Assembly: GCA_035583355.1 (NCBI GenBank) | Contig: DATEZQ010000001.1 | Coordinates: 75,055-139,054 of the forward strand | Source of the DNA: Minisyncoccota bacterium | GTDB lineage: Bacteria; Patescibacteriota; Minisyncoccia; Phycocordibacterales; UBA6899 | Direction: 5' to 3' | Length of the DNA stretch: 64,000 nt | In this document: piece after piece, positions 30,031-52,459 of the stretch | How positions within the stretch are numbered: position 1 is the first letter of the stretch | Layout: each line of letters starts with the position of its first letter | Program-made: the position numbers and the translations under genes | The notes under the pieces: model-generated | Databases searched by the model: none | What the model was told of the DNA's origin: nothing | The model's input: the letters and a program-made list of their open reading frames with translations, nothing else

Positions 30031-30124
30031 AAACACACTTCCAGTGTGTTTTTTGTATAAAATATGTATGGAGCAAAAGGGAGGGGGAGGGTGGAGGAAC
30101 TAAAAAGTATGGTGCTATCCCCAC

Positions 30125-30153
30125 TTGCAAAAATTTTTCAATCATGTATATTT
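30125..30153 (+). promoter_or_regulatory. putative sigma70-type promoter of tRNA-Ala (TTGCAA -35 / TATATT -10)
   Basis: TTGCAA at 30125-30130, 16-17 nt spacer, ATATTT/TATATT, about 10 nt before the tRNA 5' end; same TTGCAA -35 seen upstream of tRNA-Lys and tRNA-Leu. Confidence 0.45.
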
Positions 30154-30163
30154 ATCTCCACAC

Positions 30164-30236
30164 GGGCCCATAGCTCAGTTGGTAGAGCAGCGCATTTGCA
30201 ATGCGAAGGTCGCAGGTTCAAATCCTGTTGGGTCCA
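30164..30236 (+). tRNA. tRNA-Ala (anticodon TGC), no encoded CCA
   Basis: Manual cloverleaf: acceptor GGGCCCA/TGGGTCC with the Ala identity pair G3:U70, D-arm GCTC-AGTTGGTA-GAGC, anticodon loop TTTGCAA, T-arm GCAGG-TTCAAAT-CCTGT, discriminator A. Confidence 0.9.
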
Positions 30237-30300
30237 CAGAGGTAGAAAAAAGAGCGCAAGCTCTTTTTTCTTTTACCTCTGTGAGACCCAACAGGATTTG
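30218..30300. repeat. extended imperfect palindrome: tRNA-Ala 3' end / terminator-like hairpin / inverted copy of tRNA 3' end
   Basis: TCAAATCCTGTTGGGTCCACAGAGGTAGAAAAAAGAGC-GCAA-GCTCTTTTTTCTTTTACCTCTGTGAGACCCAACAGGATTTGA; arms about 38 nt. Confidence 0.7.
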
Positions 30301-30446
30301 AAAGACGGAGCCGGGCACCGTCGCCCGGCGCTGATTTTATCCGGCCAAAGGCCGTGATAAATCCAGCCGCGCGCACGGTCGGCGAGTCGGGGTCGCGAGT
30401 ACTTAGCAAATAAGGAGCGAAGCTCCGCATTTGCTTAGTAACTTGT
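30237..30446 (+). repeat. tRNA-3'-trailer structured repeat element, copy E1 (truncated), candidate ncRNA
   Basis: Reverse complement aligns with E2-E4: shares the CGCGACCCCGACTCGCCGAC...GCGCGCGGCTGGATTT core, the GCCGGGC/GCCCGGC hairpin, the GGATTTATC...GATAAATCC hairpin and a CTTAG-flanked variable hairpin; lacks the distal ~90 nt. Confidence 0.6.
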
Positions 30447-30625
30447 GACCAAATCCTGTTGGGTCCTCCATTCTTTCTTTTGTATTTGAATTTGCATTTC
30501 CGGTGACAGAGGGGCAAATCCTGTTGGGTCTCTCTGGTTACGAGCGAAGCACCTTATTGTATTTGTGACTCGTGACCAAATCCTGTTGGGTCCTCTGCAT
30601 TCTTGTATTTTGCATTTCTCCTAAT
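30447..30625 (+). repeat. array of direct repeats of the tRNA-Ala 3' end (att-like fragments)
   Basis: CCAAATCCTGTTGGGTCC at 30449-30466, CAAATCCTGTTGGGTC at 30515-30530, CCAAATCCTGTTGGGTCC at 30576-30593; copies 1 and 3 sit in a ~60-nt duplicated unit (GTGACCAAATCCTGTTGGGTCCTC...ATTC..TTGTATTT..GCATTTC). Confidence 0.7.
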
Positions 30626-30654
30626 ATAAAAACAGACGCAAGCGTCTGTCTTTA
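30626..30654 (+). terminator. rho-independent terminator closing the tRNA-Ala/element region
   Basis: AAAAACAGACGC-AA-GCGTCTGTCTTTATTT. Confidence 0.55.
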
Positions 30655-30775
30655 TTTCGTACAACACATTTTCGCAAATGTACCTCTATCCGACTTCTTA
30701 CTAAGAAGATCAATATAAATTAAAGAGGGCGACCTCTTGGAATTATATTGACCCAGTTTTCTGAAAACCGAAAAC

Positions 30776-49196: not shown

Positions 49197-49240
49197 GATA
49201 ATATAAATGCAAAAAGCGCCGAGCGGCGCTTTTTGGTTTT

Positions 49241-49539
49241 GATGCGAGGGGAGCCAAAAACCGTTCCGGTTTTTGACTCATTGAACGCTTCGCGTGCATG
49301 AATCAGAGTCGAGTTCCTCGCCCCTTCGTCTCTAAGTATTCTGCTCCAAGCATTCGCAGAATACTAAGAGCGAGTAGGGCCAGGGCTCACCGACCGTGCA
49401 CGCGGCTGGATTTCTCACGGCCCTAGCAAGGGCCGGACAAATCAGCGCCGGGTGACGGTGCCCGGCTCCGCCCTTCGAGTTCTCGAGGGGGTGGCAGCAC
49501 ATAGCAAAAAAGACGCTTTCGCGTCTTTTTTGTATGCTG
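49241..49539 (-). repeat. tRNA-3'-trailer structured repeat element, copy E2 (downstream of tRNA-Lys), candidate ncRNA
   Basis: Full-length copy, in order along the tRNA strand: terminator-like hairpin (49505-49532), inverted copy of the tRNA-Lys 3' end (49474-49491), GCCGGG..CCCGGC hairpin, GGATTT..AAATC hairpin, conserved core 49375-49413, CTAAG-flanked variable hairpin, distal AAAAACCG-TTC-CGGTTTTT hairpin. Confidence 0.6.
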
Positions 49540-49612
49540 TCCCCCCTCGAGGACTCGAACCTCGGACCGTCTCGTTAAGAGCGAGCTGCTCTACCAACTG
49601 AGCTAAGGAGGG
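49540..49612 (-). tRNA. tRNA-Lys (anticodon CTT), no encoded CCA
   Basis: Manual fold of the reverse complement: acceptor CCCTCCT/AGGGGGG, D-arm GCTC-AGTTGGTA-GAGC, anticodon loop CTCTTAA, T-arm CGAGG-TTCGAGT-CCTCG, discriminator A. Confidence 0.85.
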
Positions 49613-49716: not shown

Positions 49717-50079
49717 TTATTCATCGAGGAATTCCTGCATCTTCCAGAGCTCGTCGCGCATGAGCGTGAGGATCTTGGGGTTCTCGATGCGGCCGTGGCC
49801 GTGGCGGTATTCACCGAGCTTGTCGGTGCAGATGTGCTCACCGGTGGTCTGATTCACGCGGTGCTTCTTCTTGACGAGGCACGAGCACTCATCCTTCTTT
49901 GGAATGAGGATTTCGACCGTAAAGGTCTCGGTCGGCTCACTCACATCGTCGGCGCGGGTGCGGGCGACATGGGTGACGAGGCCGACACGAAGCTTCTGGG
50001 TCTTGTGCTTTTTGGCAGCGTCGCGACTGAGCACGACGTTCATGCCGGCATTGATGGGGTCAAGAACGATGGGAAGCAT
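49717..50079 (-). CDS. small Cys/His-rich hypothetical protein (120 aa)
   Basis: Start at MLPIVLDP; contains CSC...HRV...HIC...HGHG cluster; own terminator (49670-49705). Confidence 0.5.
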   Translation of the reverse strand: MLPIVLDPINAGMNVVLSRDAAKKHKTQKLRVGLVTHVARTRADDVSEPTETFTVEILIPKKDECSCLVKKKHRVNQTTGEHICTDKLGEYRHGHGRIENPKILTLMRDELWKMQEFLDE

Positions 50080-50203
50080 GTGCACTCCTTTGATATGCGT
50101 GATTGAGGAACTGCTTGTCGCATAGTAACATACAGTATACAAATGTCAAGGAATGAAAAAGGCTCGCATTGTGCGAGCCTCGTTGGCCGGAGCCAGGGAA
50201 GTA

Positions 50204-50515
50204 CTAGTCCTGATCCTCAGGAAAGGTGATCTCCGAGAACATTCCCGTGGGGATGTTCTGGACATCATGGGTCGGCGTGGCACCGAACCGCTTGCTGCAC
50301 TCCTTGCACGTGGCCAGGCCATGGCGGTGATTGAAGCGGAGTTCTCCCTTGCAGGAGTCGCACTTCTTTTTGATCACAGGCTTGGCCATCGTGACGGTCG
50401 TGACGCCATCCCGATAGTGGGACTTCACGAAGCCGACGGAGCTCGAGAGCTTGAGCTTGGCGACGATCTCTTTCGAGAGGACGACCATGGTGCCGGGGGA
50501 GAGCTGAGAGTTCAT
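50204..50515 (-). CDS. small zinc-ribbon protein (103 aa)
   Basis: Start at MNSQLSPG; C-terminal CDSCKGELRF...CKECSKRF zinc-ribbon pattern. Confidence 0.5.
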   Translation of the reverse strand: MNSQLSPGTMVVLSKEIVAKLKLSSSVGFVKSHYRDGVTTVTMAKPVIKKKCDSCKGELRFNHRHGLATCKECSKRFGATPTHDVQNIPTGMFSEITFPEDQD

Positions 50516-50600
50516 CAGAACCCTTTCAAGGAAAATGGAACGGAACGTCCGATCCGTTGTTACAATAGCATGGATTAGGGTGGAAGTCAATAGGTGGGGA

Positions 50601-50900
50601 TACGATACGAGGGGAGCCGAAAAACCCTGCGGGTTTTTGACTCATGGAACGCTTCGCGCACAGGAATCGGAGTCGAGAGACTCGCCCCTTTGTCACTAAG
50701 TCTTTTGGCGTAGTAACGCCAAAACGACTAAGTGCAAGTAGGGCCAGGACTCGCCGACTGCGCGCACGGCTGGATTTACCACGAGCGAAGCTCGGGTAAA
50801 TCCGCGCCGGTGCGGCAGTAGCACCGGCTCCGTCCTTCGAGTCCCGCTCCGGGTCTCAGTGGTTAACAAAAAAGAGCTTACGCTCTTTTTTGAACCACTG
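50601..50900 (-). repeat. tRNA-3'-trailer structured repeat element, copy E3 (downstream of tRNA-Leu), candidate ncRNA
   Basis: Aligns with E2 over its whole length; hairpins at 50859-50900 (AAAAAAGAGC-TTAC-GCTCTTTTTT core), 50806-50827, 50768-50807, 50695-50731 (CTAAG-flanked), 50616-50640; inverted tRNA-Leu 3' end copy at 50836-50858; 30-nt block GACTCGCCGACTGCGCGCACGGCTGGATTT (50748-50777) identical in E4. Confidence 0.6.
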
Positions 50901-50983
50901 TGCCCGGGGCGGGACTCGAACCCGCACGCCCGTGAGAGCGGGAGATTTTAAGTCTCCTGCGGCTACCATTACGCCACCCGGAC
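50901..50983 (-). tRNA. tRNA-Leu (anticodon TAA), long variable arm, no encoded CCA
   Basis: Reverse complement GTCCGGGTGGCGTAATGGTAGCCGCAGGAGACTTAAAATCTCC-CGCTCTCACGGGCG-TGCGGGTTCGAGTCCCGCCCCGGGCA; anticodon loop CTTAAAA. Confidence 0.85.
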
Positions 50984-52084: not shown

Positions 52085-52387
52085 AATTACAATACAAGGG
52101 CACTCAAAAACCTTGGGGTTTTGAGTGAAGGAGCGCAAGAACGCGCGAAATCGGAGTTCGGGAATCGGTCACAAGTTTCTAAGTTTTCTTCTCCGCACTG
52201 CTCGAAGAAAACTAAGAACTCGCGACCCCGACTCGCCGACTGCGCGCACGGCTGGATTTATCACGGCTCAGAGAGCCGGATAAAATCAGCAGCCGGTGCG
52301 GCAGTAGCACCGGCTCCGTCTTTCGATTCCCGCCCGTGCTGAAAAATGAAACAATCCCAAAGCTTTCGCTTTGGGATTGTCATTTTG
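52085..52387 (-). repeat. tRNA-3'-trailer structured repeat element, copy E4 (downstream of tRNA-Cys), candidate ncRNA
   Basis: Same architecture as E2/E3: hairpin 52340-52386 (arms extend into the tRNA 3' end), inverted tRNA-Cys 3' copy 52322-52339, GCCGGTGC..GCACCGGC hairpin, GGATTTATC..GATAAAATC hairpin, core 52230-52259 identical to E3, CTAAG-flanked hairpin 52179-52216, distal hairpin CTCAAAACC-TTGG-GGTTTTGAG. Confidence 0.6.
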
Positions 52388-52459
52388 AGGCACGGGCGGG
52401 AATCGAACCCGCGCATGTCGGTTTTGCAGACCGAAGCGTTACCACTTCGCCACCGTGCC
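52388..52459 (-). tRNA. tRNA-Cys (anticodon GCA), no encoded CCA
   Basis: Reverse complement GGCACGG-TG-GCG-AAGTGGTAA-CGC-T-TCGGT-CTGCAAA-ACCGA-CATG-CGCGGGTTCGATTCCCGC-CCGTGCC-T; discriminator U as expected for Cys. Confidence 0.85.

Follow-up and report, generated by a model that had tools for sequence, protein, structure and literature searches.

The tRNA-Ala locus studied here probably holds miniature non-coding insertion units in a polarised stack that has partly decayed; the units belong to a family found at many tRNA 3' ends and at tmRNA in this Paceibacteria lineage. We put the probability of this reading at about 0.6. The locus lies in a window (the whole stretch of DNA analysed) of 64,000 nucleotides from a Minisyncoccota bacterium. 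A unit measures roughly 200-300 bp and contains no ORF. Its parts are, in order, S (the tRNA's 3' end, from C56 of the T-loop), a terminator hairpin with a GNRA loop, AS (an antisense copy of S, 18-20 nt long), a core of 110-160 nt, and S2 (a further copy of S).

Repeats behind tRNA-Ala

The 16-mer CAAATCCTGTTGGGTC has five exact matches in the window, whereas 0.05 are expected, and five copies were reached in 0 of 100 shuffles. Four matches are on the + strand, one within tRNA-Ala (30219-30234) and three downstream of it (30450-30465, 30515-30530 and 30577-30592), and one is inverted (30285-30300). This confirms the first-pass annotation, which had reported three direct copies and one inverted copy of the tRNA 3' end; its positions for two copies are off by one base. 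Copies a and c (S2a and S2c in Table 1) are identical to tRNA-Ala over 17 nt, through C72, and copy b is the perfect 18-nt complement of the inverted copy. The inverted copy (30285-30302) pairs with tRNA-Ala (30217-30234) over 18 nt as well. The duplicated unit of about 60 nt described earlier is real, but its length is 54 nt (30415-30468 and 30542-30595, 83% identity). A tRNA-like 3' half was considered at 30415-30468, where ATTTGC reads as in the anticodon loop, and was rejected: ATTTGC is an arm of a variable hairpin and is absent from other units.

The unit behind tRNA-Ala (E1) had been called truncated. Its core is in fact the best full-length match to the family covariance model (158.3 bits, E 3.8e-35, positions 1-149 of 149), and only the tail module is missing. 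The hairpin next to the tRNA is part of the unit and would act as a bidirectional terminator; similar hairpins of other sequence stand behind every unit-carrying tRNA. Strings resembling a K-turn or box C/D motif in this long hairpin (CUGA, GUGAU) are not conserved in E3, and we dropped this candidate. The terminator that had been placed at the end of the region was also found, and is probably the native tRNA-Ala terminator.

The first-pass annotation had named an assembly artefact as a possible source of the repeats. An independent short-read assembly (L118, Logan SRR5133178) contains the same tRNA-Ala, hairpin, antisense copy and core start, so the proximal part of the array is not the artefact of one assembler. 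The contig of L118 breaks within the repeated core of the locus.

Table 1. Features of the tRNA-Ala array and of the units behind the other tRNA genes of the window
Feature	Position	Strand	Remarks
Promoter-like site of tRNA-Ala	30125..30152	+	TTGCAA, 16 nt, TATATT; only + strand promoter-like site upstream of the array
tRNA-Ala(UGC), CCA not encoded	30164..30236	+	ARAGORN; Rfam 71.4 bits
S, T-loop-to-acceptor 3' segment of tRNA-Ala	30217..30234	+	Reference repeat copy
Unit-1 hairpin	30235..30283	+	From tRNA positions 72/73; outer and inner stems, GCAA (GNRA) loop, T run
AS, perfect 18-nt antisense of S (18/18)	30285..30302	+	A30284 forms a one-base bulge facing tRNA positions 71/72
Unit-1 structured RNA core	30300..30449	+	Domain 1 to about 30388, domain 2 30389-30449; model match, covariation, fold
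S2a, 17-nt tRNA 3'-end copy (C56-C72), junction after unit 1	30450..30466	+	Pairs with AS in the predicted fold
AT-rich spacer	30467..30501	+	Resembles the segment behind S2c (30594-30625)
GGTGACAGAGGGG, 13-nt stump of an older unit	30502..30514	+	Identical to the core 3' end behind tRNA-Lys(UUU) of SKS1.bin43 (L001)
S2b, 16-nt tRNA 3'-end copy, or 18-nt perfect AS complement	30515..30532	+	
Remnant, 3' end of another core	30542..30576	+	With S2c, the distal copy of the 54-nt repeat
S2c, 17-nt tRNA 3'-end copy	30577..30593	+	Most distal junction repeat
Intrinsic terminator closing the array	30626..30655	+	Terminator-like site 30632-30649, then T run
tRNA-Lys(CUU) (49612-49540) and unit E2	49230..49612	-	Hairpin 49539-49495, AS 49494-49474 (17/18), core 49476-49321 (133.7 bits)
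E2 distal parts	49241..49320	-	Partial S2 49320-49310 (CGAG..CTCG), tail module 49309-49241
tRNA-Leu(UAA) (50983-50901) and unit E3	50595..50983	-	Hairpin 50900-50857, AS 50855-50836 (17/18), core 50838-50685 (135.2 bits)
E3 distal parts	from 50684	-	Partial S2 from 50684 (CGAGTC 50684-50679), then tail module
tRNA-Cys(GCA) (52459-52388) and unit E4	52085..52459	-	Hairpin 52387-52341, AS 52339-52322 (18/18), core 52324-52168 (144.8 bits)
E4 S2, CGATTCCCG	52167-52159	-	Interrupted by tail module

The same unit behind other tRNA genes

The repeats had been taken as peculiar to the Ala locus. Our results showed that the same unit stands behind all four tRNAs of the window (Ala, Lys(CUU), Leu(UAA) and Cys). 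E2-E4, which were thought to have no distal repeats, each carry a partial sense copy of the T-loop and T-stem of their own tRNA at the same position. The same architecture was found in SKS1.bin43 behind tRNA-Lys(UUU), Leu(CAA), Val, Gly, Phe and tmRNA, and behind tRNA-Ala in two further genomes. The genomic context of the units consists of housekeeping genes. Two GC-rich small ORFs between E3 and tRNA-Lys, considered as candidates for partner proteins, gave no Pfam match and are syntenic in L021, a locus of SKS1.bin43.

AS matches its own tRNA at 14-18 of 18 positions at 14 loci, always 44-49 nt past the tRNA, whereas the three unit-free tRNAs score 9-11 of 18. No unit stands behind tRNA-Ser(cga), tRNA-Arg(cct) or tRNA-Ala(ggc) in L016. 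AS covaries with the tRNA: in L018, a G-to-A change in tRNA-Ala is matched by its AS. The end of AS is constant at T54, the sense copy is placed exactly after the core, and the invariant T-loop GTT is situated immediately 5' of this copy. At every locus, the tRNA 3' end, hairpin and AS make up a single long palindrome that is nearly perfect. Its small mismatch or bulge is always located at tRNA positions 72/73, the 3' processing site. At the Gly locus S2 is perfect (20/20), yet AS has three indels; AS therefore does not arise as a mere copy of the target with each insertion.

Each unit runs in the direction of its tRNA and lacks a separate promoter. Their ends read CAAAATGAC... and ...TTGTGAC or ...AGGGG, and are not inverted repeats. 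Hairpins and cores are common to different tRNAs, while S and AS match each tRNA, which we counted against the insertion model. Near-identical hairpins were found behind tRNA-Ala in L012 and behind tRNA-Lys in L021.

A structured RNA in the core

The covariance model of the core (R1) detected 18 cores in 204 kb, with E values from 4e-35 to 3e-7. All 18 follow the 3' end of a tRNA or tmRNA or a copy of one, and none lies elsewhere in the 204 kb. All are full-length model matches, spanning 112-160 nt. In the core alignment, which was fitted to the model and thus leans towards this result, 95% of cells are paired and 34 of 40 pairs change on both sides; 0 of 500 shuffles equalled this. G-U and A-C pairs number 39 and 9, respectively, when counted on the structure predicted for the + strand, which leans the same way, and this places the RNA on the tRNA strand. 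The loops read GNRA or UUCG on the tRNA strand. Loop types and G-U counts were used to set the strand, because the folding alignments of both strands alone were not decisive. The RNA of unit 1 has a predicted fold of -104.9 kcal/mol (z = -10.4), and AS and S2a form its closing helix.

The core is a structured RNA unmatched by any Rfam family. Rfam 15 was searched with the whole window at the gathering score, with 30100-30700 at E up to 10 and with five related loci at E up to 0.05. In these searches tRNA and tmRNA alone reached the gathering score, and no other RNA family was matched, HEARO included; the sub-threshold matches were of microRNA type on the long hairpin, consistent with chance. 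A hammerhead-like string in L017, CUGAUGAG, was rejected, as it gave no ribozyme match in Rfam. A published description of the tRNA-linked unit family was not found in the literature searched.

Stacked and polymorphic units in relatives

Behind tRNA-Cys, tRNA-Leu and tRNA-Lys of SKS1.bin43, complete units follow one another head to tail, each set apart by a tRNA 3'-end copy. Stacked complete units measure about 220 bp, and nothing else lies between them. In L021, every stacked unit opens with a copy of the tRNA from the T-loop to the 3' end that is perfect or nearly so, and perfect copies of 16-18 nt of the tRNA 3' end separate the units behind tRNA-Cys. An N gap in one L021 array leaves its copy number uncertain.

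The Cys array of L021 has an extra, tRNA-proximal unit which is missing from the window; this is the one clear case. The proximal unit may be a newer insertion in L021, or alternatively may have been lost in the window lineage. The distal unit (unit 2) is orthologous to E4, with 78.7% identity versus 70-77% for the flanks. This result indicates that the elements are retained and not only transient. Units 1 and 2 of this array have different core subtypes. Some units, as old as the split of the two genomes, keep their structure, which would suit an RNA useful to the host no less than a mobile element.

A comparison with relatives had been suggested for finding differently occupied sites, and such sites exist: the tRNA-linked sites are polymorphic among close strains, so the array is not invariant in relatives. 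Between L012 and the window, Ddl is 94% identical and tRNA-Ala is identical, and the hairpin behind the tRNA is different. L016 and L017 have the same Ddl protein and flanks of 99.9% identity, with 3,036 bp versus 111 bp directly past the antisense segment; a 3-kb gene block stands behind the unit in L016. At tRNA-Ala(ggc), L016 has a terminator only, and L017 has an antisense-like segment. L005 has an older 3' part of tRNA-Arg, beginning at the D-arm, in a displaced position. Excised, circular or empty-site forms were not directly seen.

Pattern scans were carried out with the strict core pattern, which under-samples the family because diverged cores (L016, L018, L021) were found only via synteny; a genome collection returned SKS1.bin43 alone, and all 6 metagenome matches were unrelated coding sequence. 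Three pattern scans of IMG/VR viral contigs gave 0, 64 and 28 loci, none with the unit architecture.

Enzyme genes in the window and related loci

No recombinase domain was detected among the 40 ORFs scanned in the window (mostly of at least 120 aa), in agreement with the first-pass annotation, which had seen no integrase gene there. No recombinase, transposase, reverse transcriptase or nuclease linked to a unit was found in the window or in six annotated related loci. The annotated loci L016, L018, L021, L023 and L025 showed no recombinase domain, and no integrase gene or fragment adjoins a unit in the annotated loci. The sole recombinase seen was a large serine recombinase in L003, which lies beside a unit-free tRNA-Ser and adjoins no unit. 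A Cas1-family domain was absent from all scanned ORFs. The array had been explained as the scar of a tyrosine integrase. The direct repeats at the tRNA 3' end agree with this, but no tyrosine integrase was found in the window or the six related loci. The units also differ from what ordinary integrase-bearing elements would leave behind, being complete at roughly 200-300 bp, non-coding, and made of a structured RNA with an antisense copy of the target.

A model for the array

We propose that insertion at the T-loop or 3' end would leave a copy of S on either side of the unit, and that the S within the unit would keep the tRNA intact. The flanking copies may be att-type repeats or a target-site duplication, two origins that the data do not separate. 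A new unit would enter beside the tRNA and push the older units outward. The Ala stack would then consist of a full unit (30237-30449) with S2a, a 13-nt stump with S2b and a 35-nt stump with S2c, the two older units having presumably been gutted by deletion. We interpret the array as one full and two gutted older units because complete units stack in SKS1.bin43 with tRNA-end copies between them, and this view is supported by the 13-nt stump, which is identical to a full core's 3' end elsewhere. Serial integration at this tRNA, as proposed earlier, holds in outline, with the copies marking the junctions of repeated insertion, except that the inserts are miniature and non-coding.

Since the units lie on the tRNA strand without a promoter of their own, read-through from the tRNA promoter may transcribe them. 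The fold of the unit RNA would be closed by AS pairing with the next S copy. AS and the core would most likely serve as an "anti-repeat" or guide recognising the tRNA 3' end, either so that an enzyme encoded elsewhere could insert a unit or so that the transcript could be processed. A further-reaching version, which we regard as speculative and rather unlikely, makes the units RNA-centred mobile cassettes: they would home to the universal T-loop/3' end of tRNA and tmRNA genes and stack from the tRNA promoter in a leader-proximal, CRISPR-like way, with a transcript (an anti-repeat to the tRNA 3' end attached to the conserved scaffold) that guides an RNA-guided integrase or nuclease, or that acts as a ribozyme in its own insertion or processing.

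Alternative explanations

The strongest alternative, possible though on the whole unlikely, is that the units are tRNA-linked non-coding RNA genes kept by the host. They would derive from the 3' trailer, and the antisense arm would pair either with the tRNA of its own locus or with the sense copy further downstream. Their roles could be tRNA 3'-end processing, quality control or regulation, and the arrays could arise by unequal crossing-over between short repeats. Orthologous units are kept across about 25% nucleotide divergence, with helices maintained by compensatory changes, and AS is still 17-18/18 complementary in old units, as expected for such genes; the defect at the 3' processing site, the co-orientation with the tRNA without a separate promoter and the housekeeping surroundings fit too. 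However, the three tRNAs named above do without a unit, close strains differ in unit presence, and stumps and gutted units are tolerated at tRNA-Ala. The mixed core subtypes of the L021 Cys array do not come from simple duplication, and the near-identical hairpins on different tRNAs also argue against it. Host-kept RNA genes are compatible with mobility, as a useful RNA could still be mobile.

A second alternative is that the repeats are attL/attR scars of integrase-bearing phages or islands that were later deleted, with the conserved piece as an attL-proximal leftover. We consider this improbable. The full length of all 18 cores does not look like a random leftover, the RNA structure is conserved and covarying, and complete units are stacked with nothing between, even though the direct repeats start in the T-loop and the tmRNA gene is also a target, as such scars would have it. 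The displaced tRNA-Arg part in L005 and the 3-kb gene block in L016 likewise favour scars, whereas the annotated loci show no integrase gene or fragment next to any unit and the viral contig scans gave no real match.

Template switching at the terminator hairpin (quasi-palindrome extension) with replication slippage, without mobility or RNA function, would produce the long palindrome seen at every locus and an AS automatically matching whichever tRNA is present, but is very improbable as a full account and at most the mechanism keeping AS matched, since it leaves unexplained the conserved covarying core beside AS, the constant T54 end and 72/73 defect, the sense copy right after the core, and the stacks of different core subtypes.

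Comparison with known systems

Insertion units at tRNA genes, our preferred reading, have parallels in several known systems. The T-loop is reportedly, after Williams in 2002, a classic crossover place for integrases of tRNA and tmRNA genes. As in integrative elements, direct repeats of a tRNA 3' segment lie on both sides of the unit with the intact tRNA at one junction, and presence/absence polymorphism is seen (L012 versus the window, L016 versus L017, and the extra proximal unit of L021); a recombinase gene inside the element is missing, as the units have no ORF. Tycheposons of Prochlorococcus integrate successively, separated by partial tRNAs, and new elements push old ones further into the island (10.1101/2020.12.28.424599). 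Our units resemble them in the insertion at the 3' part of a tRNA that is kept intact, in the partial tRNA copies that flank and separate the elements, and in the newer elements that would push older ones outward and leave degraded remnants. In contrast, tycheposons extend over kilobases and encode a tyrosine recombinase along with cargo, while the units are roughly 200-300 bp long without ORF or detected integrase, and contain an antisense target copy and a conserved structured RNA.

Casposon insertion at the TΨC-loop/3' end of tRNA-Pro gives a target-site duplication, and each new casposon enters upstream of the last, which makes tandem arrays (PMC5137440). Casposon and CRISPR arrays are polarised, with the new insert upstream of the last and the duplicated segment between, and the Ala array would be likewise polarised behind its promoter. 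The TΨC-loop/3' end would be the "leader", and there is one short duplicated target segment per insert, present on both sides of it. Casposons are large elements with terminal inverted repeats and with genes for Cas1 and a polymerase; neither a Cas1 gene (scanned ORFs) nor terminal inverted repeats (unit ends) were seen here, and the duplicated segment is about 16-20 nt and wholly inside the tRNA. CRISPR spacers are about 30 nt of foreign DNA, whereas the "spacers" here are homologous structured RNAs of about 200 nt. A CRISPR array with tracrRNA was rejected on this ground and for want of cas genes. TIGR-Tas arrays were also rejected, their units being 36 nt with 9-nt spacers. The units are not MITEs: no terminal inverted repeats bound them, and the repeat on either side consists of 16-20 nt of tRNA, where a MITE would have a target-site duplication of 2-10 bp. 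A group I intron in or after the tRNA (considered because of PMC13011429) does not agree with the intact tRNA, the too small core and the lack of an intron match, and a retroviral-type primer-binding site does not agree with an AS that has no complement of CCA or of the discriminator base.

The long imperfect palindrome directly at one junction, which has its unpaired defect in a constant position, resembles hairpin attachment sites. Such sites are used by CTX-phi/IMEX via Xer and by integrons (attC), whose cassettes can be short and stack in arrays. The layout of hybrid site, loop, inverted copy, cargo and direct repeat is the expected leftover of a folded single-strand att site. Unlike in attC and CTX-phi, the palindrome arms are the tRNA's own sequence and vary by locus, the cargo is a conserved RNA, and no dif-like or R/L-box consensus is visible by eye.

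Some mobile elements use guide RNAs, namely the bridge RNA of IS110 and the omega RNAs of IscB and TnpB. Like these, the unit is a structured non-coding RNA with target-complementary segments, AS 5' and the sense copy 3' of the scaffold, and the invariant T-loop GTT is found where a target-adjacent motif would be. Different from them, no recombinase or nuclease gene lies in or adjoining the units and no known scaffold was matched in Rfam. The guide-like segments, whose function here is putative, are 16-20 nt long and mutually complementary.

Implications

If the units are mobile, they would be among the smallest site-specific insertion elements known, with a payload of conserved structured RNA and an antisense target copy and no protein. 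This would suggest that an enzyme acting in trans reads an RNA or hairpin signal, or that tRNA targets are chosen under RNA guidance, and either mechanism would be of interest for genome-insertion tools. The family is directly searchable, since the covariance model R1 exists. The units explain why Patescibacteria contigs break right behind tRNA genes. They also indicate that, in these very small genomes, non-coding DNA which is repeated behind a large share of the tRNA genes is both tolerated and conserved. If the units are useful to the host, they would be a new class of tRNA-linked RNA, each member paired to its own tRNA, and could matter for how tRNA 3' ends mature in organisms without an encoded CCA.

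A tRNA-linked unit family

Each of the four window tRNAs (Ala, Lys-CUU, Leu-UAA and Cys; units E1 to E4) is followed by one and the same layout. None of these tRNA genes encodes CCA, and in each case a hairpin begins directly at or after the discriminator base. The hairpin is followed by AS, about 19 nt antisense to the T-loop, T-stem and acceptor 3' strand of its own tRNA, then by a GC-rich conserved core, and then by S2, which repeats in sense orientation the beginning of S (the tRNA 3' segment from T-loop C56).

Scanning the species genome collection with the core pattern gave five more copies, all in the sister MAG SKS1.bin43, behind tRNA-Lys(UUU), Leu(CAA), Val, Gly and the tmRNA gene. 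In this genome, tRNA-Phe also shows the layout, around an unrelated core. Ddl synteny led to two further genomes (Ddl only 71-72% identical) in which tRNA-Ala is followed by the layout, with diverged or shortened cores. At 14 loci AS matched its own tRNA at 14-18 of 18 positions, every time 44-49 nt after the tRNA, versus 9-11 of 18 for three tRNAs without a unit; at one related locus (L018) a G-to-A change in the tRNA is mirrored in AS. The host is a Paceibacteria-type member of Patescibacteria, and the genes around the units are housekeeping ones (UvrA, UvrC, Ddl, LeuRS, IF-2, RbfA). In locus L023 (IF-2 75% identical), the contig end is the reverse complement of a core 3' end plus a tRNA-Leu-like sense copy, so the family reaches that further lineage. 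No tRNA-Cys follows RbfA in that genome.

Coordinates of features in the window and in related loci
Feature	Locus	Position	Remark
tRNA-Ala(UGC)	window	30164-30236	ARAGORN + Rfam
Other unit-bearing tRNA genes	window	49540-49612; 50901-50983; 52388-52459
CAAATCCTGTTGGGTC within tRNA-Ala	window	30219-30234	exact
CAAATCCTGTTGGGTC, further direct copies	window	30450-30465; 30515-30530; 30577-30592	exact
CAAATCCTGTTGGGTC, inverted copy	window	30285-30300	exact
54-nt duplication	window	30415-30468; 30542-30595	83% identity
Tail module	window	49241-49309; 50597-50678; 52085-52158
Tail module	L021	14140-14290; 15754-15810
Tail module	L002
Tail module	L004		two copies
Two Cys-rich ORFs	window	49717-50590	minus strand
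N run	L021	13778-13787	10 N
Contig end with core 3' end	L023	12880-12926
Long haplotype block	L016	11180-14215	3,036 bp
Short haplotype	L017	2763-2873	111 bp
Large serine recombinase region	L003	4154-6617	SKS1.bin43 contig 1
tRNA-Arg(cct) and 116-nt repeats	L005	4664-5420
tRNA 5' part fused to core-like segment	L005	6051-6250

Stacked units and the tRNA-Ala array

The first-pass annotation had taken the repeated tRNA-Ala 3' ends for an att-like scar of repeated integration, specific to the Ala locus. The repeats are real, with coordinate slips of one base only: the 16-mer CAAATCCTGTTGGGTC has five exact matches against 0.05 expected, and five were reached in 0 of 100 shuffles. Its inverted copy is complementary to tRNA-Ala across 18 nt, and the two are separated by a GCAA-loop hairpin with a T run. 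The repeat region ends in a terminator. The stretch from tRNA-Ala through hairpin and antisense copy to the core start is exactly reproduced in an independent short-read assembly (L118). The restriction to Ala fails, as tandem S2 modules are also present behind tmRNA and tRNA-Phe.

The orthologous Cys-Leu-Lys tRNA cluster of SKS1.bin43 (L021) was retrieved by IF-2 synteny (IF-2 89% identical). Behind its tRNA-Cys, a proximal unit (hairpin A, AS split by an extra hairpin, short core) is separated by a perfect 18-nt copy of the tRNA 3' end from a distal unit (hairpin B, perfect AS, full core), after which come a 17-nt copy and native downstream sequence. Units behind tRNA-Leu and tRNA-Lys are stacked likewise, and one array can mix core subtypes. 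The stacking at the three tRNAs indicates that a unit runs from T-loop C56 through hairpin, AS and core, with S copies between units. E4 is 78.7% identical to the distal Cys unit, with 70-77% for the flanking DNA, so E4 and that unit are orthologues; nothing in the window corresponds to the proximal unit. The tRNA-Leu array, with its three nearly identical units, is interrupted by an N run; how many copies it has depends on the scaffolding and is not to be trusted.

These stacks with their S-copy separators explain the Ala repeats. Read in this light, the Ala array would comprise one complete unit, S2a, two stumps each with an S2 copy, and the terminator. The 13-nt stump GGTGACAGAGGGG before S2b is identical to the core 3' end of the SKS1.bin43 tRNA-Lys(UUU) unit (L001), and the 35-nt stump before S2c is 83% identical to the end of the core of Ala unit 1.

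Turnover between relatives

In a relative with 94%-identical Ddl (L012), the tRNA-Ala is identical and the hairpin behind it is not; this hairpin is nearly identical to that behind tRNA-Lys in L021. L016 and L017 share the same Ddl protein and 99.9%-identical flanks, and split immediately after AS. The 3-kb block that differs, with zinc-ribbon and trypsin-like membrane proteins, is placed between two convergent tRNA-Ala genes; at tRNA-Ala(ggc) an antisense-like segment is seen in the short haplotype and none in the long one. Short-read contigs repeatedly stop inside tRNA, hairpin or core, as expected of a repeated family.

The core is a structured RNA

Rfam searches of the window and related loci returned tRNA and tmRNA matches only. 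With a covariance model based on ten cores, 18 cores were detected across 204 kb (E 4e-35 to 3e-7), all just after a tRNA/tmRNA 3' end or a copy thereof and none elsewhere. In the core alignment, 95% of cells are paired and both partners change in 34 of 40 pairs, values favoured by an alignment fitted to the model; none of 500 shuffles and no slid control approached them. G-U pairs outnumber A-C pairs (39 versus 9), and the hairpin loops are GNRA or UUCG when read on the tRNA strand. The core is therefore a structured RNA on the tRNA strand, and not a described family.

No promoter-like site was found between tRNA and unit, so read-through of the tRNA promoter would be the likely source of the unit RNA. 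In the predicted fold of the isolated unit RNA (-104.9 kcal/mol, z = -10.4), AS:S2a forms the closing helix; in that of the full read-through transcript, AS can pair with the tRNA 3' end instead.

Neighbouring inserts and remnants

The last S2 copy is either followed or interrupted by a separate tail module of about 55-80 nt, in which ACTCCGATT occurs together with two hairpins, GCGAAGC and AAAAACC-GNRA-GGTTTTT. At tRNA-Cys, comparison of the window and L021 suggests that the module lies inside S2 after tRNA position 64, as a second small insert with a site of its own would.

Behind tRNA-Arg(cct) in L005, an unrelated 116-nt repeat occurs about four times in tandem, including an N gap. Next comes the displaced 3' two-thirds of an older tRNA-Arg with its own hairpin, antisense segment, tRNA-Phe-type core and sense copy. 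Here both the crossover point (D-arm) and the insert class are different. Further on, a tRNA 5' part (Gly-like body, anticodon CGG) breaks off at the T-stem and continues straight into a core-like segment (model match E 0.007) ending in GTTCGATTC; it is probably a tRNA pseudogene from a deletion within an array.

The interval between E3 and tRNA-Lys contains a pair of small Cys-rich (zinc-ribbon-like) paralogues. Both ORFs have a promoter-like site of their own and a somewhat higher GC (53-60%), and neither has a Pfam match. L021 has similar small ORFs at the equivalent position.

Mechanism and comparison with known systems

The intact tRNA, insert and tRNA 3' repeat, the repeat-separated stacks and the extra unit adjoining the tRNA point to a topology of serial site-specific insertion. 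The S repeat around the insert would arise by either an att-type crossover or a target-site duplication. No recombinase was found in the window, and none was linked to a unit in six annotated related loci. SKS1.bin43 contig 1 carries a 549-aa large serine recombinase (Resolvase, Recombinase and Zn_ribbon_recom domains) whose ORF overlaps tRNA-Ser(cga), a tRNA without a unit, and a CI/LexA-like repressor also adjoins; the region has the look of an ordinary integrated element and lies about 130 nt from the unit-bearing tRNA-Val.

The unusual component of the unit is AS. With S and the hairpin it makes up a palindrome of some 40 bp whose small defect always falls at tRNA positions 72/73, and AS is still matched to the tRNA even in old units. 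The AS of the Gly unit is less perfect than its S2, which argues that AS is carried by the unit and not freshly copied at each insertion. What keeps AS matched may be template switching inside the palindrome. We prefer the reading that AS and core would act as an anti-repeat or guide recognising the tRNA 3' end. A serious rival is that the units are a host-useful tRNA-linked RNA, which is compatible with mobility.

The serial-insertion topology has two precedents. Tycheposons integrate successively, leaving partial tRNAs between them (10.1101/2020.12.28.424599). Casposons target the TΨC-loop/3' end of tRNA-Pro with duplication of a short segment, and in their stacks each new copy lies upstream of the last (PMC5137440). 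Unlike integrase elements, the units have no recombinase gene; unlike casposons and MITEs, they have neither terminal inverted repeats nor Cas1. Guide-RNA insertion sequences have an adjacent protein gene, whereas the units have none, and no Rfam family matches the core. That the units are a new type of RNA-guided or RNA-mediated system seems to us unlikely. Literature searches found no description of the unit family. Insertion at tRNA 3' ends is a known kind of process, of which the family is a variant not found described; the units would work most like tRNA-targeting integrative elements and casposon/CRISPR-type polarised arrays.
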